Source of the DNA: Gammaproteobacteria bacterium
GTDB taxonomy: Bacteria; Pseudomonadota; Gammaproteobacteria; GCA-002705445; GCA-002716945
DNA length: 38,665 nt
NCBI GenBank assembly: GCA_038101125.1
Contig: JAYNVZ010000006.1
Span: 869-39,533 of the forward strand
Direction of reading: 5' to 3'
The first letter of the stretch is position 1. Each line of letters begins with the position of its first letter. Shown piece by piece: positions 2,038 through 10,200 of the stretch. The notes beneath the pieces were generated by a model, which was not told the DNA's origin, searched no databases, and saw only the letters and a list, made by a program, of their open reading frames with translations. Position numbers and translations under genes: made by a program.

Positions 2038-2492
2038 TGTTTAAAGAAAGAAAATCAGTAGAAGAAGTTGAAGAAGGGTTTAGTTTAAGCCCCAAGTTTA
2101 ATGATCAAGGGTTCATACCTGTTGTTACAACAGATACAAAAACTGGTGTACTTCTCATGCATGCGTTTATGAATGCAGAAGCTCTAAAATTGACCATTGA
2201 AACAAAAGAGGCGCATTATTACAGTAGAAGTAGAAAATGTATTTGGCACAAAGGCGCGACAAGTGGATTTGTCCAAAAAGTTGATCAAATGTTAATTGAT
2301 GATGACCAAGATTGTGTATGGATAAAAGTTACAGTTGCAGGTAATGCAAGTTGCCATGTAGGCTATTTCTCATGTTTTTATAGAGAAATTAAATATGACG
2401 GCAAAAATGTTAAATTAAGTTTCACCGAGAAAGAAAAGGTCTTTGATCCTGATGATGTGTATGGTGATGCACCAAACCCTACTATTCTATAA
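2037..2492 (+). CDS. hisI: phosphoribosyl-AMP cyclohydrolase
   Basis: LM.AFMN.EAL, YYSRSR..IWHKG.TSG, DDDQD, SCHVG..SCFYR. Confidence 0.93.
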   Translation: MFKERKSVEEVEEGFSLSPKFNDQGFIPVVTTDTKTGVLLMHAFMNAEALKLTIETKEAHYYSRSRKCIWHKGATSGFVQKVDQMLIDDDQDCVWIKVTVAGNASCHVGYFSCFYREIKYDGKNVKLSFTEKEKVFDPDDVYGDAPNPTIL

Positions 2493-2729
2493 ATTATTTA
2501 GGTTTAGGTTTTGGCTAAAGAACTGTGCTAGAACACCTGTTAGATAGCAAATAATCAAAACATACACTGGGCCCATGTATTGCATAGTATCAATAAAATA
2601 GCCTACGGAGCCTATTACAAAATTATAATTAGACACATAACCTTGAGTAAAATAAATAAATATTAGAACAGGGACCAAGATTAATGATCCGATAATAGTA
2701 CTTTTTATAAATTTTTTAAAAAATAACAT
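2487..2729 (-). CDS. hypothetical small membrane protein (2 predicted TM helices)
   Basis: 80-aa ORF filling the gap between hisI and the RibD-like gene; two hydrophobic stretches; no recognised motif. Confidence 0.55.
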   Translation of the reverse strand: MLFFKKFIKSTIIGSLILVPVLIFIYFTQGYVSNYNFVIGSVGYFIDTMQYMGPVYVLIICYLTGVLAQFFSQNLNLNNL

Positions 2730-2740
2730 ATAATTAAAAA

Positions 2741-3604
2741 ATGGTTAATAAACTTAGTATAACAAAGAAATCTTCATGGTCACTAGTTTTAGCGGCAAAA
2801 GAAACAGTATATGATGAAGAGAAACATTCTTCCCTGATATCTATAGAAAAAACTATTAGAGGGGTAAAATACACCCTAGCATATGATAGAAATTCTGAGA
2901 CGATACCTAAGTGTAATTTTATAATGGATAATTATAGTGAAATGCTATTTTCAACATTTCTTCCTATTATATTCAATAATCACCATAAACCATTTTTTGT
3001 AGCTCATTTAGCACAAACTCTTGATGGGTTTATTGCAACTGATTCTGGTGAATCAAAATATATTAGTTCCAAAGAAAACCTCACTCATATTCATATGATC
3101 AGGGCAATCTCTGATGTTATAATGGTAGGAAGCAAAACTGTAGCACTCGATAATCCTGAGCTAACCACTAGGTTTGTCAAAGGGCCAAGCCCGATGAGAA
3201 TAATTATAGATAAAGATAATAGATTATCTAATAAATATAACGTTTTCAAAAATTCTGATTCTAATGGTTATAAAATTATAAGTGATAAAATAAAAACAAA
3301 AGAAGATAATATTTTCCAGCTGCCTTTGGATAAAGGACGATTTAATGAGCAAGATATTATCTTGCTGCTAAGTAAGTTAAAGAAAAAAGTGATATTTATA
3401 GAGGGTGGCGGAGTAACAGTTTCAGATTTCTATAACAGAAACATTTTAAATAGGCTTCACTTATGCATTAGTCCAAGTATTCTTGGTAAAGGGAGGCCTA
3501 GCTTTATAACAAAAACAAAACAATCACTAGATGAAGCTAAATGTCATAAAACTAAATATTTTAAAATGGGTCAAGATATGCTTTGTGATATCAAACTATC
3601 TTGA
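2741..3604 (+). CDS. RibD C-terminal (pyrimidine reductase / DHFR-fold) domain protein
   Basis: AQTLDGFIAT..GESKYIS, R..SDVIMVG..TV..DNP.LT.R, IEGGG, P.ILG.G; no HAE/PC..C deaminase motifs. Confidence 0.88.
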   Translation: MVNKLSITKKSSWSLVLAAKETVYDEEKHSSLISIEKTIRGVKYTLAYDRNSETIPKCNFIMDNYSEMLFSTFLPIIFNNHHKPFFVAHLAQTLDGFIATDSGESKYISSKENLTHIHMIRAISDVIMVGSKTVALDNPELTTRFVKGPSPMRIIIDKDNRLSNKYNVFKNSDSNGYKIISDKIKTKEDNIFQLPLDKGRFNEQDIILLLSKLKKKVIFIEGGGVTVSDFYNRNILNRLHLCISPSILGKGRPSFITKTKQSLDEAKCHKTKYFKMGQDMLCDIKLS

Positions 3605-4489
3605 TTTAAGTCTTACTAAAAAGTATAAGCCAGGTAAAGAACAAATGAGATTTAATATCCCATACATTATAGCAACACTTATACTTACTGATGCAGATAA
3701 GCCCAATAGAAAAGATATTAATAGAGCTGCAAACTCTCTAACTCCCCAACCGCCAATACTAACAGGCAAAGTCATAGAGAATAGTATTATTGGAGTGAAA
3801 ACTAAAAACGAAAAATAATCTATGTTCAAGCCAAGAGAAACTGCAGATATTATATATATAAAAATATAAGACATCATTACAAAAAAAGACAATACTGTAT
3901 GTCTCCAGAAAACCTCTCCTGTAAAAACAGTTAGAAAATTATTTCCATAGTGCTTACTTCTTATATATTTTCTTAGTTTGTTATTAAAGATATATTTCAG
4001 GAAATAGAATGCGGCAATTAAAGGTAAAAATAAATAAGAAAAAGCAATGTATTTCTGATGAATGATAAAATATAAGCCCAAGGATAAGATAAAAAATGAT
4101 AAGAGCATTAGCTGGCCCGATAATCTCTCATATACAACTGATTGAAAGGACCTTCCCACTCTAAAGATCTCTTTTTTATCATCAATATGATGATAAATTC
4201 TAAAAATATCGCCCATAATACCACCTGGTAAGATATTATTCATAAATGTTGAAATATAATAAAACTTGATTGAGTTAATGAAACTAATATCAAGGTTTGT
4301 ATGTTTAGAAATATACTTCCACCTATATGCAGATAATATGTACTGTATAATACTTATGAAAATGATTAATATTATATAATTAATATTAACTAATTTAATT
4401 GTATCAATTATATCTTTACCGTAATTGATAAAAAGAATATAAATTAATCCTAAAGAAATTATATATTTACATATATCTATTATTTTCAT
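3596..4489 (-). CDS. lysylphosphatidylglycerol-synthase TM domain (UPF0104, flippase-like) membrane protein
   Basis: AYRW, F.NNILPGG.MGD.FR, SVVYERLSG, LPVSIGGWGVRE motifs; polytopic hydrophobic. Confidence 0.87.
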   Translation of the reverse strand: MKIIDICKYIISLGLIYILFINYGKDIIDTIKLVNINYIILIIFISIIQYILSAYRWKYISKHTNLDISFINSIKFYYISTFMNNILPGGIMGDIFRIYHHIDDKKEIFRVGRSFQSVVYERLSGQLMLLSFFILSLGLYFIIHQKYIAFSYLFLPLIAAFYFLKYIFNNKLRKYIRSKHYGNNFLTVFTGEVFWRHTVLSFFVMMSYIFIYIISAVSLGLNIDYFSFLVFTPIILFSMTLPVSIGGWGVREFAALLISFLLGLSASVSISVAIMYGILNLICSLPGLYFLVRLKSR

Positions 4490-5361
4490 TATGTCTCGAT
4501 CAATATATCTTTATGACCAACCACCAAATTACTGTTTTTATTTTCTATGTCATTTTGTTTAGATTTCAACCAATCTTCCAAGATATATTTATCAGTCAAT
4601 TCAAATTTTTTTAAAGGTTTGTAAATTGTATTGAGATATGCTTTTTGAAATATCCTTGAATCATTATCATGTGAGTCAACAGACCATGATGAATCAGCTA
4701 TATAACTTTTATAATCATTCTTTTTGGCGAGATTCTTAATGAAGTTTATGCTATTCAGGCCCAAGGCAACACCTGTTGTTTTTTCTTGTTTCTGATGCTG
4801 ATTGAACATTGAAACTATATACTTATCATGTTTATTTTTATTCTTCCATTTAACTCTCCCATCAAAACATATAGAAAAATATAGATTAGTGCCTTTATCA
4901 ATTTTATCAAATAAATATTTAATAAATTTTTTAGACAACAGATCTGACACAGCGGAAAAGCTTACTAGATTATAATCATTGATAATATCAATAGATTTAT
5001 AAAAATCTTGTTTTCTTAATGTAATAAAACCATCTTTATTATTTCTTATATTCTGAATTCTGTATGACATCATATTATCTTTTTTAAGAGATAAAGACAT
5101 CTTTGATAAATAGCTTTTTGTTCTAGGGTAAAAGCTTTTCAGCAATGCTTCATCATTATCAATAATTAGGAAATCATCATATATAATATTTTTGTAGTGA
5201 CACCATCTAAGAAAAGAACCATTACCACCCCCAAGGTCTATGACTTTTTTTAAGTTCATTTTATTATTTTTATATAGATTTTGAAGCAAATCACTTCTAG
5301 ATAACATATCATATGATTCTCTCAAATTAATCCAAGTGGTCGTAAATTTATTAGCTTGCAT
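4489..5361 (-). CDS. class I SAM-dependent methyltransferase
   Basis: W..LRE..D...RS N-terminus, IDLGGGNGS SAM motif. Start moved to ATG 5361 (MQANKF), which has AAGGG upstream and overlaps the GT stop. Confidence 0.8.
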   Translation of the reverse strand: MQANKFTTTWINLRESYDMLSRSDLLQNLYKNNKMNLKKVIDLGGGNGSFLRWCHYKNIIYDDFLIIDNDEALLKSFYPRTKSYLSKMSLSLKKDNMMSYRIQNIRNNKDGFITLRKQDFYKSIDIINDYNLVSFSAVSDLLSKKFIKYLFDKIDKGTNLYFSICFDGRVKWKNKNKHDKYIVSMFNQHQKQEKTTGVALGLNSINFIKNLAKKNDYKSYIADSSWSVDSHDNDSRIFQKAYLNTIYKPLKKFELTDKYILEDWLKSKQNDIENKNSNLVVGHKDILIET

Positions 5362-6337
5362 ATAATGCCCTTTTAAAAATTTTAGCAGTAGTGCTCCAAT
5401 TATAATATCTAAGTTTACTATTACTGATATACGGTTCTGATAATAAACTATATTCAATTGCCTCTGCTAATTTTTTACTATCATCCTTAGGGAAAAAAGT
5501 AACTTTTCCACCTTGTAAAGCTTCTTTTAAGACCGGTAGATCACTAGTGATAACATTCATACCCAATGCACAAGCTTCAACAAGGGAGATACCAAAACCC
5601 TCATAAGAGGTGGGTAATACGAATATCTTTGAGTTGAGCATATACTTCATCTTAGCATCATCAGAAATATTTCCTAAAAATGTTATATTCTCTGATAGTT
5701 TATATTTTTCTATTTGGCTAATGAGTTTAAGATAATAAATATCATTTTTTGAATACTTGCCAATAATATTAAGGTGCCACGTATGTTTAATTTTTGATAG
5801 GGATTCAATCAGAACATCATAACCTTTACGTTCTATTACATTACCTACAGTTAGTATATTTGTTGAATTTAAGTTCGTTTTATTTGAATAATATTTATCA
5901 TCAATACCTGGATATGCAACTTCTGTTTTAACGATTCTATCTATTAGTGAATTTATTACCTTTTTCATATAAAAACTAACAGTTATTATTGATTTAGAAT
6001 TACTAAAAGCTCTCCTTTCGTTAAAGTATAAATTTAAGTTTGACATTTTACCTTCCCTTTTTTCTAGACAACATGGATGATGAACTAATATGTGTATATT
6101 TTTATTAAATAAAAAAGATATTCTATTCGCTAAATAACCATCAATGAGAATGATCGATTTTTTGGGCATGTTATTAACTAAACTCAATAGTTTCATCTGA
6201 GTAATAGAATTTGAAACAATTATTTTTTTCGCAGGGACATGAAGTTTTTTTAAATATTTACATACTTCATGATCATATAATGTTCCACCAGTTGTAGTAC
6301 CTTCAAATTCAGGGAAAATAAAAAATAGTTTTTTCAT
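5351..6337 (-). CDS. glycosyltransferase family 4 (GT-B)
   Basis: TGG..YD, VGNVIERKG, FVLPTSYEGFGISLVEA (E-x7-E). Confidence 0.9.
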   Translation of the reverse strand: MKKLFFIFPEFEGTTTGGTLYDHEVCKYLKKLHVPAKKIIVSNSITQMKLLSLVNNMPKKSIILIDGYLANRISFLFNKNIHILVHHPCCLEKREGKMSNLNLYFNERRAFSNSKSIITVSFYMKKVINSLIDRIVKTEVAYPGIDDKYYSNKTNLNSTNILTVGNVIERKGYDVLIESLSKIKHTWHLNIIGKYSKNDIYYLKLISQIEKYKLSENITFLGNISDDAKMKYMLNSKIFVLPTSYEGFGISLVEACALGMNVITSDLPVLKEALQGGKVTFFPKDDSKKLAEAIEYSLLSEPYISNSKLRYYNWSTTAKIFKRALYAS

Positions 6338-6341
6338 TCAT

Positions 6342-6734
6342 TTATATTATTTTTTCATAAGAGGCAGAAGCTATATGGGATTCATTGAGTATCATTTTGA
6401 TACTATATATTTTTGATATATTAGTTTCTTCTTTATTTAGTTTTTCGATAAAATCATTTGTTAGTTGATATGCTAAAAATTCTGTAGTTGTAATAAATCC
6501 TTTTAAAGACTCTACTTCATCAAGATTCTTATAATTATATTTATTAATACATTCTTTTAGCAATTTAGATGCAAGTCCAATATCTATAACAACATTCATG
6601 CTAGAAAGTTCATTACTGCTTACTATAAGATCAATCACATATGTGGCTCCATGTAGATTTTTAGCTGGACCAAAGAATTCGTTATTAAGGCTATGTGCTA
6701 TAAATAAATTATCCCTGACTTTAACTTCGTACAT
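6342..6734 (-). CDS. 6-pyruvoyl-tetrahydropterin synthase / QueD-fold paralog (PTPS-IV-like)
   Basis: IAHS....FGPA..LHGATY, D.G, Y.NLD, TTEFLA, ESH.A.ASY; lacks the C-x3-HGH of QueD. Confidence 0.85.
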   Translation of the reverse strand: MYEVKVRDNLFIAHSLNNEFFGPAKNLHGATYVIDLIVSSNELSSMNVVIDIGLASKLLKECINKYNYKNLDEVESLKGFITTTEFLAYQLTNDFIEKLNKEETNISKIYSIKMILNESHIASASYEKII

Positions 6735-7719
6735 TTTTTTTTACTCCATAGTCAACAACTTTACAATAAAAGTTTTCATTATTTTTTATTTCAGAAAAGA
6801 AAATAGGTAAATCATAGAAATTCACCATTTTTTTCTCTATTAACAAATCTAATTTATCATTATCCAATAGACTTAGTGCAAGTTTTTTTCTATCATTATT
6901 GTCCCAGTATTTACTCCTATTATGTGAAACTTTGGATACTTGAGAGAAAATAATTTTAGCTCTTTTAGACAAAAATTCAGTACCAAATTTAACATTTGAA
7001 GTATCGTTTCCATACCAACTTAATATACATATTGTTGTCTCTTCCATTAGTTTTGTAGAAAGTTCATTGATAACAGATGAATTACCCGAACATTCATATA
7101 TTATATTCGCTTTATATGAATTGGGTATTTTCTGAGAAAATTCTATACCAAATTTTTTTGCAGTCTTTGATTTTTTGTTATCTTGATCAATTAATAATAT
7201 CTCTACTCCAGGAATTTTTTTCAATAAATATGCCGTTAACAGACCGACAATACCGGCACCTATAATTAATACTTTGTCACCACATGTTGGCAGAGTATCC
7301 CACATAGCATTGATAGCGGTTTCCATATTTGCTGTTAACAAGCATCTCTTTAGAGGGATCGAGTCTGGAATAATAATTAGATCTGATTCATCTATCGTAT
7401 ATAAAGTCTGATGGGGAAATAATGTATATACATATTTATTCTTAAATGCCGTAGATCCTTCTATAACCTTACCAACATTTATGTAACCATATTTTACATT
7501 TGCCCCAAATTCACCTTCTTGAAAGGGGCATTTCATTAGAGTGCGTTGATTTTTTGGTACACTACCAGTGTAAACTATCTTTTCTGTGCCATAACTAATG
7601 CCACTATATATAGTTTTTATCAAAGCTTGGCTTTTTTGAGGTATACTTAGAGGATGTTTCTTAATAAAACTAGTGTTTTGTTTTTTGATCCAAAATGATT
7701 CAGCTACAAGTTTTTTCAT
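6721..7719 (-). CDS. medium-chain dehydrogenase/reductase (MDR) family oxidoreductase
   Basis: YSGIS.GTE, KYGY.NVG, L.ANMETA.NA.WD, GAGIVG Rossmann motif, LSWYG. Confidence 0.87.
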   Translation of the reverse strand: MKKLVAESFWIKKQNTSFIKKHPLSIPQKSQALIKTIYSGISYGTEKIVYTGSVPKNQRTLMKCPFQEGEFGANVKYGYINVGKVIEGSTAFKNKYVYTLFPHQTLYTIDESDLIIIPDSIPLKRCLLTANMETAINAMWDTLPTCGDKVLIIGAGIVGLLTAYLLKKIPGVEILLIDQDNKKSKTAKKFGIEFSQKIPNSYKANIIYECSGNSSVINELSTKLMEETTICILSWYGNDTSNVKFGTEFLSKRAKIIFSQVSKVSHNRSKYWDNNDRKKLALSLLDNDKLDLLIEKKMVNFYDLPIFFSEIKNNENFYCKVVDYGVKKNVRS

Positions 7720-7736
7720 AATTTAATTAATTGTAT

Positions 7737-8272
7737 ATGAGTAAATCTAATTTAATAACAATTTCCTTTACATATTTGTTTTCAGTTTTACTGCTTTTAT
7801 TAACTTTTAAGGAACAGTTAACACTATTTATAATGAAAGCGCTTTTATCAGTCTTGCGTTTTTTTCATTACTTCTAGATGGGTTAGATGGATTTATTGCT
7901 AGGAGGTATAATGACACTTCCAAATTTGGAGAACTTTTTGATCAAGAGTCTGATAATTTTTTAATGTTTGTACTATCAATGTCACTTTACATAAATAAGG
8001 ATATAGGTTTATATGTTTTTCTGATTCCGGCATATCGATATATATTTATTACTTTGATGACTAAATATTCCTGGTTGAAAAATAATTTACCAGATAGCAT
8101 ATTAAGAAAATCCGCATGTGTTATGACAACACTATTAATGATAATCTCTCATGAGATATATTTTAATGAATATATCTTCAATTTTATAATAAATTTAGCA
8201 CTCTTTATAATTACATTTTCTTTTTCTAAGGATATAATTTGGTTATATAGGAATAAATATGAAAAAGGTTAA
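7737..8272 (+). pseudogene. CDP-alcohol phosphatidyltransferase family gene, frameshifted as sequenced
   Basis: Frame open 7811-8272 carries DGLDGFIARRYNDTSKFGELFDQESD (7877-7954), upstream of its first ATG (7964). ATG 7737 opens a hydrophobic frame that stops at TAG 7875-7877. Family is clear; pseudogene versus sequence error is not. Confidence 0.75.
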
Positions 8273-8849
8273 ATATATACTCATTGCCATCTGTTGTTCT
8301 ATTTCGAATATAGCTACATCAGATACTGAGAAATACATACTAGATGAAACACATTTAAGTATTGGCTTCTTGGTTGATCATGCAGGCTATGCCCGAACTT
8401 TAGGGATGTTTACAAAGGCTAGTGGCTCTTTCAAATATAATGCAGATACAAATATAGTATCAGAAGTAGAAATAATAATTGATACTGATAGCGTCTTTAC
8501 AAATCATGAAAAAAGAGATGCCCATCTCAAAAGTCCTGATTTTTTAGATACGAGTAATTTTCCAACTATGATTTTTAAGGCTGATAGAAATGACCTAAAA
8601 TTAAATCCTGGAAAAATTAAAGGTAATCTGACATTGCTTGGTAAAACGAGACCTTTATTACTGAATGTAAAAATTAATAAAATTGATACCTATCCATTCC
8701 GAGTTGGGCTTTCTAAGCCAATGGTTATGGGTGTGTCTGGCTCGGCTATATTTAAAAGATCAGATTTTGGAATGAATTATGCGGTAAAAAAGAATTTAGT
8801 CGGTGATGAAATTGAATTAATAATTGAATTTGAAGCTAGACAAGAATAA
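8259..8849 (+). CDS. YceI family periplasmic lipid/polyisoprenoid-binding protein
   Basis: Signal-peptide-like N-terminus; LDETH..IGF.V.H, RDAHLKSPDF, G.LTLLG.T, KRSDFGM. Confidence 0.92.
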   Translation: MKKVKYILIAICCSISNIATSDTEKYILDETHLSIGFLVDHAGYARTLGMFTKASGSFKYNADTNIVSEVEIIIDTDSVFTNHEKRDAHLKSPDFLDTSNFPTMIFKADRNDLKLNPGKIKGNLTLLGKTRPLLLNVKINKIDTYPFRVGLSKPMVMGVSGSAIFKRSDFGMNYAVKKNLVGDEIELIIEFEARQE

Positions 8850-9517
8850 TGAAGAATAAAAATATATCGCTAGATCCCATAAAGCTTAATGGATATATAG
8901 AACAAGTAGGATATGAAAAAGATACTATATTATCTGAATTAAGAAGCAAAACAGAGTTACTAGGTGATGTAGCTGTCATGCAGATTGGTCAGACTCAAGG
9001 ATCTCTCATCGAAATATTATGTCAATTAGGACAATTTAATAAGTGTATAGAAATCGGTGTATTCACAGGATATAGTGCAATATGTATAGCTAAAGGCCTA
9101 CCTGAAAGTGGAAAACTTTATGCTCTAGAAAACTCGACTGAGTTTAATGACATCGCAAAAGAATATTGGGTTAAAAGTAATTGTAATCATAAAATTGAAT
9201 TAATAATTGGTAATGCAATTGATTCTTTAGATGACTTTCTAATGAAAAAGATGCATGATACGTTTGACTTTATATTTATTGATGCTGATAAGAAAAACTA
9301 TTTAGAATATTACAAAAAATCTTTACAGCTTATTAGAAAAGGTGGAGTAATATTGATTGACAATACATTATGGAAGGGTAAAGTAATGGACAGTTCTGAT
9401 AAAACAAATAGTACAAGATCAATAAGAGAATTGAATAATTATATAGCAACTGATAAGAATGTTTACCACTGTCTTTTAACATTATATGATGGAATGACTT
9501 TATGCATAAAAAAATAG
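8849..9517 (+). CDS. cation-dependent O-methyltransferase (caffeoyl-CoA OMT / TrmR-like family)
   Basis: MQI...QG, EIGVFTGYS, FDFIFIDADK.NY..Y, GG.ILIDN.LW.G, DGMT. Confidence 0.9.
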   Translation: MKNKNISLDPIKLNGYIEQVGYEKDTILSELRSKTELLGDVAVMQIGQTQGSLIEILCQLGQFNKCIEIGVFTGYSAICIAKGLPESGKLYALENSTEFNDIAKEYWVKSNCNHKIELIIGNAIDSLDDFLMKKMHDTFDFIFIDADKKNYLEYYKKSLQLIRKGGVILIDNTLWKGKVMDSSDKTNSTRSIRELNNYIATDKNVYHCLLTLYDGMTLCIKK

Positions 9518-10200
9518 ACACCACGATCAGTTTTTATAAATTCATAAAAATCGATGATTTAGAGAATCTAAAATTGAAAATTCATAGCTATCTGAAAGAA
9601 CTAAATATTTATGGGACAATAATATTAGCACCAGAAGGCATAAATGCTAATTTTTGTGGATCAAAAGATGACGTAGAACTCTGCAAATCCTATATATCTA
9701 ATTTATTATCGTTAGGCTCCATACATTATAATAAATCTACTGTATCTGAAAAGGTCTTTACAAAATTAAAGGTAAAAATTAAGAATGAAATAATAAAAGC
9801 TGGCTTTACTATATCTGAAGAAATAGTCTCCCAAAATAATTCCTTAGAACCTATAGAATGGGATAAATTACTTGATCGCAAACCACTAGTCATCGATATG
9901 AGAAATAGGTTTGAATATCTGTTAGGTACATTTGAAAATTCAAAGAGTTTAGACTTATTAAATTTTAGCGACTTGAAAGATACCCTAAAAAATAATAAAG
10001 ATATAGATACTAAGAAGGATGTGGCAATTTTTTGTACAGGAGGTATCAGATGTGAAAAAGCAACTGTCGCCCTGAAAGAAATTGGTTTTAATAATATTTT
10101 CCAACTAAAGGGTGGAATTATTAACTATCTAAATAATCCAGATAATAAAAATAAATGGAAGGGAGATTGTTTTGTATTTGACGATAGAATTACATATTAA
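9502..10200 (+). CDS. trhO: rhodanese-domain tRNA U34 hydroxylase (UPF0176)
   Basis: FYKF, GTIILAPEGIN, KLKVK.K.EI, D.RN.FEY..GTF, FCTGGIRCEKA, L.GGI.NY, W.G.CFVFD.R. Confidence 0.85.
   Translation: MHKKIDTTISFYKFIKIDDLENLKLKIHSYLKELNIYGTIILAPEGINANFCGSKDDVELCKSYISNLLSLGSIHYNKSTVSEKVFTKLKVKIKNEIIKAGFTISEEIVSQNNSLEPIEWDKLLDRKPLVIDMRNRFEYLLGTFENSKSLDLLNFSDLKDTLKNNKDIDTKKDVAIFCTGGIRCEKATVALKEIGFNNIFQLKGGIINYLNNPDNKNKWKGDCFVFDDRITY

Follow-up and report, generated by a model that had tools for sequence, protein, structure and literature searches.

A compact copy of a widespread orphan PTPS-IV gene cluster in a streamlined gammaproteobacterial lineage

The window analysed here (the whole stretch of 38,665 nucleotides from a gammaproteobacterial contig) carries a run of closely spaced genes around a PTPS paralogue, which raises the question of whether these genes belong together and what they make. 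The locus is a genuine, compact copy of a widespread, cross-phylum and still unexplained orphan PTPS-IV gene cluster, the product of which is probably a methylated, sugar-bearing ring compound that derives from the breakdown of GTP and may be anchored to a membrane lipid.

Genes of the PTPS-IV locus

The preliminary description listed seven gene families in a given order, five of them in a tightly packed minus-strand run. Profile searches and structure models bear out all seven family assignments (Table 1), and the minus-strand genes indeed overlap their neighbours or are separated from them by at most 4 bases. Six genes are intact where they had been placed; the seventh (7964-8272) proved to be a tail fragment only (see below).

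Table 1. Features of the PTPS-IV locus, in window coordinates
Feature	Position	Strand	Length (aa)	Assigned by
Stand-alone RibD_C-type pyrimidine reductase	2741-3604	+	287	PF01872, E 4e-32
Flippase-like membrane protein, LPG_synthase_TM domain only	3596-4489	-	297	PF03706, E 1.2e-36
Class I SAM-dependent methyltransferase	4489-5361	-	about 290	AlphaFold + Foldseek
GT4 glycosyltransferase	5351-6337	-	328	PF00534, E 2.5e-31
PTPS-IV (SCO6650-type T-fold protein)	6342-6734	-	130	PF01242, E 4e-17
BchC-like MDR dehydrogenase	6721-7719	-	332	TIGR01202 (BchC), E 2e-14
CDP-alcohol phosphotransferase gene, interrupted at 7832/7833	7731-8272	+		PF01066
YceI-like periplasmic lipid-binding protein	8259-8849	+		PF04264, E 1e-36

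The PTPS paralogue scores 36.3 bits on the QueD model TIGR03367, the cut-off of which is 89.25, and its sole match in the PDB, over its whole length, is SCO6650 of Streptomyces coelicolor (3D7J, E 3e-25). Its motif reads FGPAK..LHGA; FG.A..HG.T is kept across 35 aligned relatives and FGPAQ is given as the PTPS-IV signature in a section of PMC5445326. The protein match and the FGPAQ-type signature identify it as a SCO6650-related PTPS-IV, as had been proposed, and the further claim that it is not of the queuosine or folate type is supported at the sequence level, given that the motifs of QueD, PTPS-II and PTPS-III are absent from it and that a true QueD is encoded separately in the same genome. 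Compared with this QueD, the catalytic Cys and the last His of HGH are both replaced by Ala and the Asp-His pair by Asn-Tyr; two His and two Glu are retained.

The RibD_C protein, which has an N-terminal extension of ca. 80 aa outside the assigned domain, falls under the cut-off of every NCBIfam riboflavin model (78.7 vs 186.45 bits for TIGR01508). By solved-structure matches it is nearest to archaeal and fungal-type diaminopyrimidine reductases, the best being 2AZN of M. jannaschii and 6P8C, a 2,5-diamino-6-ribosylamino-pyrimidinone 5'-phosphate reductase. Seven residues ahead of the G of its LDG motif it has a His where the full RibD of the same genome has a Lys, and no K occurs at this position in 48 cluster copies, which have Q (24 copies), H (12) or S (12) there. 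The MDR dehydrogenase reaches 53 bits on TIGR01202 (cut-off 291), and its AlphaFold model (pLDDT 92.0) has as nearest folds RspB (4ILK), TarJ (6XH9/6XHK) and xylitol, sorbitol and L-idonate dehydrogenases, with TM values of about 0.73-0.79. At what we take to be the positions of the Cys and His-Glu zinc ligands of zinc ADHs it reads SGISYGTE and KYGY. It is thus modelled as a zinc-less, polyol-dehydrogenase-like protein that resembles polyol, sugar-phosphate and ribulose-5-phosphate dehydrogenases.

Among the remaining minus-strand products, GT4 has 6KIH and PimA (2GEJ, 4N9W) as weak solved relatives. The methyltransferase, which probably starts at ATG 5361, the listed TTG 5457 being too early, has only a weak match in Pfam, but its model (pLDDT 95.5) was matched by Foldseek and VIA-align to small-molecule methyltransferases (top match 3MGG, Z 19.4) and its DLGxGxG motif is conserved. 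The flippase-like protein passes the cut-off of TIGR00374 (63.5 vs 43.2 bits), and Pfam and NCBIfam profiles found no MprF synthase domain in it. The YceI gene, which shares 14 bases with the 3' end of the phosphotransferase gene, encodes a product with a signal-peptide-like N-terminus. Both genes adjoin in 14 of 57 loci, exclusively in gamma- or betaproteobacteria, and by this adjacency YceI is a possible accessory gene of the cluster.

The phosphotransferase gene is broken as assembled. The PF01066 match (E 3e-16) extends over 7772-8203 with one internal TAA, and ORF 7964-8272 (102 aa, no Pfam match) is the C-terminal portion of the protein. The catalytic motif DG-x2-AR-x8-G-x3-D-x3-D lies upstream at 7889-7957 in the same frame, separated from this ORF by the TAA, and the N-terminus (ATG 7737) sits in a different frame from the tail. 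A sister genome (G007) has 187 bases more than the window and an intact gene of 242 aa, the length also found in G009. Logan contigs from four of four sequencing runs have some 181 additional letters at window 7832/7827, and the junction seen in the window occurs in none of the contig pieces listed. Because these independent contigs contain the missing bases, the interruption probably arose during assembly. On family models the protein is weakly PgsA-like and archaetidylinositol-phosphate-synthase-like, with scores far under the cut-offs.

Co-occurrence and distribution of the cluster

Partner genes were counted within 7 kb of PTPS-IV at 57 loci that extend at least 5 kb on either side of it; loci with PTPS-IV span at least five phyla (Pseudomonadota, Actinomycetota, Bacteroidota, Gemmatimonadota and Acidobacteriota). 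MDR was found at 56 of the loci and GT4 at 55, followed by the methyltransferase and the CDP-alcohol phosphotransferase (49 each), RibD_C (42), the flippase-like gene (36), GTP cyclohydrolase II (29), a creatininase-family gene (24) and an FkbM methyltransferase (13). The seven families therefore co-occur elsewhere, and many genomes add a GTP cyclohydrolase II paralogue, as the preliminary description had it; it had named a lack of such co-occurrence as the outcome that would count against it, and the 57 loci gave the opposite result. Since an identical gene order is found again across phyla, the arrangement, as far as sequence comparison goes, is not due to chance. GT4 and the methyltransferase are moreover fused within a single open frame at 12 of 58 loci, compared with one or two for other adjacent pairs.

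The cluster had also been described as retained in a streamlined genome, and this is borne out by PTPS-IV occurring in 22 of the 24 genomes of this streamlined family vs 7 of 300 drawn class-wide; completeness is 82% and 57% for the two family genomes in which it is missing. The ecological roles suggested for the cluster (UV, redox or phage receptor) are guesses. G025, a more distant gammaproteobacterium, groups only the PTPS-IV, GT4 and methyltransferase genes, which sit beside FolE2 and a PTPS-III-type gene; lipid genes were not found in the 18 kb examined.

Proposed pathway and alternative readings

The reading that we prefer, with a probability of roughly 45%, is that the locus represents the SCO6650-type orphan cluster in a streamlined lineage and works through a ring-opened-GTP pathway, each chemical step of which is read from family names and gene neighbourhood. 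The substrate would be a 2-amino-4-oxo-pyrimidine nucleotide from GTP ring opening, of the 2,5-diamino-6-ribosylamino-pyrimidinone 5'-phosphate kind. RibD_C would turn its ribosyl group into a ribityl chain by reduction and the zinc-less MDR would re-oxidise one ribityl hydroxyl, the net effect being an aldose-to-ketose isomerisation comparable to that of xylose reductase with xylitol dehydrogenase. PTPS-IV, in which the ring-anchoring Glu are kept and the PTPS/QueD catalytic residues are gone, might bind the ring and close or tailor the side chain, perhaps to yield a neopterin-like pterin. GT4 would then add a sugar and the methyltransferase a methyl group on either sugar or ring, after which the CDP-alcohol phosphotransferase could link the product to a lipid through a phosphodiester and the flippase-like protein could bring it to the outer leaflet for possible binding by YceI.

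Several observations count against this proposal. We know of no metabolite, enzyme assay or mutant for the cluster, and its product is named in none of the papers found. Neither a GTP cyclohydrolase II nor a creatininase-family gene linked to the cluster was found in this genome, G025 has a partial set, and the phosphotransferase gene is broken as assembled. The copy here is, from the genomes searched, a reduced one, the usual GTP cyclohydrolase II and creatininase genes being absent from the lineage. The only PF00925 match in the genome is a RibB-fused domain without Cys ligands, as in 14 of 15 family genomes searched, and none of these 15 yielded a catalytically plausible GTP cyclohydrolase II, so that the proposed diaminopyrimidine precursor is without an identified source in this genome. 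In favour of a link to GTP, such genes do lie inside the cluster in Vreelandella, Streptomyces and others; in their alignment the one Streptomyces copy has a Met where the other two cluster copies aligned (L076 and L024) have Tyr, a switch that changes the product. Finally, a passage of a review (PMC5041015) assigns PTPS-IV to F420 synthesis on unpublished work, which the proposed pathway leaves unexplained.

An alternative, which appears unlikely, is a soluble methylated and glycosylated pterin comparable to cyanobacterial biopterin glucoside or cyanopterin, made by a core of PTPS-IV, GT4, methyltransferase and MDR from FolE2-supplied dihydroneopterin triphosphate, the phosphotransferase and flippase-like genes being lineage-specific additions or serving another lipid. 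FolE2 is the sole GTP cyclohydrolase with intact features found in the genome and adjoins the PTPS-IV group of G025; parts of PMC5445326 place it in PTPS-IV neighbourhoods, and pterin glycosides and pteridine glycosyltransferases are on record in sections of PMC5683033 and PMC4133829. However, none of 80 loci has FolE2 within 7 kb of PTPS-IV, and the G025 pair may be plain folate genes because the PTPS beside FolE2 has the folate-type ExxHGH motif. The cluster, moreover, pairs PTPS-IV with GTP cyclohydrolase II and the RibD_C pyrimidine reductase, not with enzymes of the GTP cyclohydrolase I type. As to the lipid genes, most loci do have the phosphotransferase, but 8 of the 57 have no such gene inside the 7 kb range and 21 have no flippase-like gene there, which also suggests that, within the ring-opened-GTP pathway, lipid attachment may be optional.

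It is quite improbable that the product is an ordinary glycophospholipid with no GTP-derived ring, in which PTPS-fold and RibD_C proteins were recruited for sugar or polyol chemistry. The head group would then be a polyol phosphate or sugar phosphate, much as in phosphatidylinositol mannosides or ribitol-phosphate polymers. The likeness of the MDR model to the ribulose-5-phosphate reductase TarJ and polyol dehydrogenases would fit this reading, as would the weak similarities of GT4 to PimA and of the phosphotransferase to PgsA and archaetidylinositol-phosphate synthase, and the absence from PTPS-IV of the PTPS catalytic Cys, of one zinc His and of the Asp-His pair. Yet both Glu are kept in PTPS-IV, the T-fold is a purine- and pterin-binding fold, GTP cyclohydrolase II genes lie inside the cluster in 29 of 57 loci, and every RibD_C relative of solved structure acts on ribosylaminopyrimidines.

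A cofactor role, in which the genes would form an alternative early branch leading to deazaflavins (F420/FO) or flavin-type cofactors, as hinted for archaeal PTPS-IV, can hardly be right: GTP cyclohydrolase II, the creatininase-family protein (weakly ArfB-like, E 2.7e-5) and RibD_C do resemble early steps of the archaeal riboflavin/F420 pathway as generally known, but no CofD (PF01933) was found in this 87%-complete genome, which has its own RibD and RibH, and to our knowledge a glycosyltransferase, a CDP-alcohol phosphotransferase and a flippase-like protein belong to no known flavin or deazaflavin pathway.

Comparison with known systems

The pairing of a CDP-alcohol phosphotransferase with a GT4 enzyme is shared with phosphatidylinositol and phosphatidylinositol-mannoside synthesis, in which the GT4 enzyme is PimA; similarity to the corresponding models is weak, family-model scores being far under cut-offs, and unlike that system the cluster is without inositol-phosphate synthase and has a T-fold protein, a RibD_C reductase and a methyltransferase. 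The pterin glycoside pathways of cyanobacteria and Chlorobium likewise have a glycosyltransferase and a reductase or dehydrogenase acting alongside a PTPS-family protein on a ring derived from GTP, such a ring being presumed here, and cyanopterin, a known pterin glycoside, has a methylated sugar. These pathways, however, start from GTP cyclohydrolase I, and their PTPS is catalytic and has Cys and HGH, residues that the window protein lacks, whereas the cluster partners are RibD_C, lipid-type genes and, elsewhere, GTP cyclohydrolase II.

The best solved relatives of RibD_C come from the early riboflavin steps of archaea and fungi, in which the ring-opened GTP product is reduced before deamination, and like those reductases it is without the bacterial RibD Lys at the aligned position. 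It differs from them in falling under the TIGR01508 cut-off, in its N-terminal extra and in occurring in a genome with a separate, complete RibD. Finally, Streptomyces loci have the same order as the window, namely MDR, PTPS-IV, GT4, methyltransferase, flippase-like gene and a divergent CDP-alcohol phosphotransferase, with an extra GTP cyclohydrolase II and creatininase-family gene, whereas the window version is AT-rich and compact and is followed by YceI.

Gene content of the 2741-8272 region

With a G+C content of about 30%, the window is AT-rich; it sits on contig C27 of a 1.0-Mb genome that is 87% complete, and its close protein relatives carry the label of marine Gammaproteobacteria MAGs. 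Gene calls between 2741 and 8272, which drew on the list of ORFs and on two HMM libraries, recovered the families and places of the seven genes that the preliminary description had proposed, except that the seventh ORF corresponds only to the tail of a gene. The minus-strand genes of the cluster overlap or are separated from their neighbours by at most four bases. Both flanks consist of housekeeping genes, with EamA, a MOSC protein, HisI and an 80-aa membrane ORF on one side, and YceI, an O-methyltransferase, TrhO and then ccm genes and a tRNA-Met on the other.

Genes called in the PTPS-IV cluster (window positions)
Feature	Position	Strand	Basis
RibD_C-only reductase	2741-3604	+	ORF list + HMM
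LPG_synthase_TM / flippase-like membrane protein	3596-4489	-	ORF list + HMM
Methyltransferase-like protein	4489-5361, or to 5457 with a TTG start	-	ORF list + HMM
GT4 glycosyltransferase	5351-6337	-	ORF list + HMM
PTPS paralogue	6342-6734	-	ORF list + HMM
MDR dehydrogenase	6721-7719	-	ORF list + HMM
102-aa ORF, without Pfam match	7964-8272	+	ORF list

The last of these ORFs encodes only the end of a CDP-alcohol phosphotransferase. The motif DG-x2-AR-x8-G-x3-D-x3-D is read upstream in the frame of this ORF, at 7889-7957, after a TAA, and a hydrophobic N-terminus, which begins with an ATG at 7737, lies in a different frame. The PF01066 match (7772-8203, E 3e-16) contains one internal TAA. The gene carries the motif of its family and is interrupted in the present assembly. 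By HMM, its product is only distantly PgsA-like or archaetidylinositol-phosphate-synthase-like. An intact 242-aa phosphotransferase gene is found in a genome of the same genus, and a sister genome, with 95-97% DNA identity at the locus, has 187 additional bases between two TTTATA copies and encodes an intact 242-aa protein. Logan contigs of four public sequencing runs were further placed on window 6800-8800. In run X1, one 7,994-letter contig fits both sides near-perfectly, with 181 additional letters inserted between window positions 7832 and 7827; this run is the best match and possibly the source sample. A contig of X2 does likewise, and contigs of X6 and X10 continue beyond 7832 with a translation like the segment that the sister genome has and the window is missing. 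Because the longer form occurs in public contigs and the window's own junction is in none of the listed contig pieces from the four runs, the break is attributed to misassembly or, at most, to a minority deletion, and the natural gene is most likely intact.

Several features of the flanks and of the window as a whole were recorded. The upstream MOSC (YiiM-like) and HisI genes occupy 1099-2492, with a gap of 182 bases at 1855-2036. The 80-aa ORF (2487-2729, minus strand) encodes two membrane helices, has no Pfam family and lies 11 bases from the start of RibD_C on the opposite strand; it shows 46-54% identity across the seven own-family loci examined and is matched in one wide-scan locus (L023, from a MAG that shares the synteny) and in none of the 79 others. 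On the other side, a Methyltransf_3 O-methyltransferase gene (8849-9517, E 9e-63) overlaps the start of the TrhO gene (9502-10200; 232 bits, above cut-off). TrhO is the tRNA uridine-34 hydroxylase, and together the two enzymes could form 5-methoxyuridine in tRNA, in the manner of TrmR in Bacillus. Two tRNAs were the only Rfam matches in the window, none being a riboswitch, and a promoter scan of the window returned 62 sites, where 61 were expected, and found no terminators. Metatranscriptome runs contained 8-18% of the sampled words.

Assignment of the cluster enzymes

The PTPS paralogue (PF01242, E 4e-17) matches a single entry among all PDB sequences, 3D7J, deposited as "uncharacterized protein SCO6650" (E 3e-25, residues 1-129). 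According to PMC5445326, FGPAQ is the signature of PTPS-IV; the window protein reads FGPAK, one substitution away, and 35 relatives give FGPAQ as their consensus, in which F, G and A do not vary. Based on the 3D7J match and this signature, the protein is classified from its sequence as PTPS-IV. When aligned to the QueD of the same genome, Cys is replaced by Ala, HGH by HGA and the Asp-His pair by Asn-Tyr, while two His and both Glu, namely E85 (within TTTEF) and E118 (within ESH), do not change among the 35 relatives. QueD/PTPS-I was rejected, since the protein reads AKNLHGA instead of CxxxHGH and reaches 36.3 bits with TIGR03367 against a cut-off of 89.25; the genome's true QueD has CxxxHGH and scores 109.6 bits. 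The CxxxxxHGH motif of PTPS-II is missing. PTPS-III, the folate bypass enzyme, has the motif ExxHGH according to PMC5041015, and was likewise rejected because the Glu three residues ahead of the His is absent and HGA stands in place of HGH. Sequence comparisons thus agree with the earlier proposal that this is an SCO6650-type protein and neither a queuosine nor a folate enzyme. Four proteins of 375-855 aa (P0126, P0127, P0133 and P0137) each contain three tandem PTPS-IV-like stretches, with 33-39% identity to the window protein.

The nearest solved relatives of RibD_C (2AZN and 6P8C) are diaminopyrimidine-type reductases. It scores 106 bits with TIGR00326, the bacterial RibD reductase model (cut-off 156), and 78.7 bits with TIGR01508, the archaeal/fungal diaminopyrimidine reductase model (cut-off 186.45), in both cases below the cut-off. 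At the position seven residues ahead of the G in LDG, it has a His where the RibD of the same genome has a Lys; among 48 cluster copies this position is Q in 24, H in 12, S in 12 and K in none. By its TIGR00326 score and by this residue, the protein was rejected as a bacterial RibD reductase. In RibD, the Lys recognises the 2-oxo group that the substrate bears after deamination, and its absence from the cluster copies fits a 2-amino substrate.

The MDR model (pLDDT 92.0) is closest to polyol and sugar-phosphate dehydrogenases (TM about 0.73-0.79), namely RspB, the ribulose-5-phosphate reductase TarJ and the xylitol, sorbitol and L-idonate dehydrogenases. It reads SGISYGTE and KYGY at the ligand positions of zinc alcohol dehydrogenases. 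BchC was rejected for this protein (53.4 bits with TIGR01202, cut-off 291.25), the likeness being in motif style only. The methyltransferase model (pLDDT 95.5) shows a class I SAM methyltransferase, and its nearest matches are assorted small-molecule methyltransferases; fold searches and an Atlas search returned generic class I small-molecule matches that do not separate N-, O-, S- and C-methylation. No pteridine glycosyltransferase (BGluT/PGT) occurs among the PDB matches of GT4 at E <= 1e-5. The sole family match of the flippase-like protein, PF03706 (the TM region), spans residues 8-287 of 297 and therefore leaves no space for a synthase domain; MprF was rejected, as the C-terminal aminoacyl-lipid synthase domain is lacking.

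Conservation of the cluster

Of the 24 genomes from the window's family, 22 have PTPS-IV, and the remaining two are 82% and 57% complete. Across the class, it occurred in 7 of 300 evenly drawn genomes (E <= 1e-18), two of which belong to the window's genus. Within the family the entire region is syntenic, flanks included, which leaves the cluster ends undefined, and a wider scan was therefore performed with one genome per species and two peptide patterns taken from an alignment. More than 600 stretches were matched and at least 597 loci confirmed, with record titles from Gamma-, Alpha- and Betaproteobacteria, Actinomycetota, Bacteroidota, Gemmatimonadota and Acidobacteriota. The best 80 of these loci were analysed, a sample biased to query-like loci, by targeted tblastn within 7 kb of PTPS-IV; de novo ORF clustering of the same loci was set aside because spurious long ORFs in GC-rich DNA fused families.

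Families found near PTPS-IV in the best 80 loci of the wide scan (tblastn)
Family	All loci	Loci with >=5 kb on both sides
MDR	75/80	56/57
GT4	75/80	55/57
Methyltransferase	61/80	49/57
CDP-alcohol phosphotransferase	61/80	49/57
RibD_C	52/80	42/57
Flippase-like	44/80	36/57
GTP cyclohydrolase II	35/80	29/57
Creatininase family	26/80	24/57
YceI	17/80	14/57
FkbM methyltransferase	16/80	13/57
FolE2	0/80	0/57

The co-occurrence of the cluster families elsewhere, as previously claimed, was confirmed by these counts, and the order of MDR, PTPS-IV, GT4, methyltransferase and flippase-like genes is nearly constant across loci. GT4 and the methyltransferase share a single open frame in 12 of 58 loci (L045, L050, L056, L057, L070, L076, L077, L078, L081, L087, L090 and L095; 644 aa at 10396-12330 in L076), compared to 2 of 73 for MDR/PTPS-IV and 1 of 75 for PTPS-IV/GT4. 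These frames appear to be natural fusions, and their recurrence ties methylation to the glycosylation step.

The window copy is the smallest version among those seen, with neither a dedicated GTP cyclohydrolase II nor a creatininase-family gene, and with 22 of 24 family genomes retaining it, the set of essential enzymes is narrowed. The host genomes, of about 1 Mb, are otherwise gene-shedding, yet the cluster was kept, which argues for a function relevant to the surface ocean.

GTP supply and the proposed product

The preliminary description had noted that PTPS-IV members elsewhere are accompanied by a GTP cyclohydrolase II paralogue, and had proposed a glycosylated, perhaps lipid-linked product derived from GTP. 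The families, the PTPS-IV identity and the co-occurrence were upheld, and the cyclohydrolase accompanies PTPS-IV in about half of the well-flanked loci elsewhere, but no cluster-linked paralogue occurs in the window. The single PF00925 match of the genome is the C-terminal half of a RibB-fused ORF on another contig (C2:11775-12236; L104 883-1971), beside RibD (C2:9937) and RibH (C2:12338). This domain reads HVQNVLTD..STNLSTWP where cluster-type enzymes have HSACLTGD..SLRCDCG, from which it follows that the Cys ligands are lost, and it also lacks the EGRGIGL stretch. A single low-scoring match of this kind (105-119 bits) was found in 14 of the 15 family genomes searched. Because the sole GTP cyclohydrolase II-like domain has lost these elements, no first enzyme was identified for the riboflavin pathway of the lineage. 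Neither a FolE-type GTP cyclohydrolase I nor a creatininase-family gene was found in the genome. In other genomes, the cluster GTP cyclohydrolase II has about 180 extra N-terminal residues in the proteobacterial loci L076 (14174-15343) and L024 (14104-15237) and about 130 in Streptomyces (L066, 14224-15228). The proteobacterial enzymes have a Tyr where that of Streptomyces has a Met, at a position that determines removal of the formyl group.

Families, folds, conservation and fusions are established by observation, and from these we infer the chemical steps of a model, held with moderate confidence, in which the cluster builds a GTP-derived head group. RibD_C would reduce the ribosyl group and the polyol-dehydrogenase-like MDR would re-oxidise one hydroxyl of the chain, the two steps together being formally an aldose-to-ketose isomerisation. 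PTPS-IV may then bind the ring and close or tailor it. Glycosylation and methylation would follow, then phosphodiester coupling to a lipid and, as the last step, a flip to the outer leaflet. In its complete form, the model predicts a new class of membrane phospholipid, whose head group would be a heterocycle derived from GTP, either a neopterin-like pterin or a ribityl-diaminopyrimidine, that arises from the reductase and polyol-dehydrogenase "isomerisation" and subsequent T-fold-assisted closure. The ring would bear a methylated sugar and be exposed either on the inner membrane's outer face or in the periplasm; this joint reading is tentative, with a probability of about 0.3. If true, near-universal retention in a 1-Mb marine lineage would imply a core envelope function.

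Since a diaminopyrimidine precursor has no identified source in the lineage, a pterin route fed by FolE2 stays as a rival. FolE2 is present in the genome, where it adjoins QueD on another contig, and was rejected as a cluster member, since it was not found within 7 kb of PTPS-IV in any of the 80 loci. Of the cluster genes, a distant gammaproteobacterium (G025) has just PTPS-IV, GT4 and the methyltransferase, which lie beside FolE2 and an ExxHGH-type PTPS. This gene set, together with loci that have no lipid genes near PTPS-IV, suggests that the core product could be a soluble glycoside and lipid attachment an addition to it. PMC5041015 assigns PTPS-IV a role in archaeal F420 synthesis, with reference to unpublished work; for the present genome (87% complete) an F420 link was rejected, as no CofD was found in it.

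The cluster product was named in none of the papers found by a search that did not extend to the main COG0720 family paper or to supplements, and the accessible part of a 2026 pterin review (PMC13259868) mentions neither PTPS nor lipids. With at least 597 loci, PTPS-IV and its neighbours represent one of the larger conserved gene sets without a known product, and the locus described here is a reduced member of this known orphan cluster. Should the product prove to be a ring-bearing glycolipid or pterin glycoside, it would constitute a new class of lipid or pigment in abundant marine bacteria and would provide a function for 3D7J, a solved structure that is still labelled uncharacterised.
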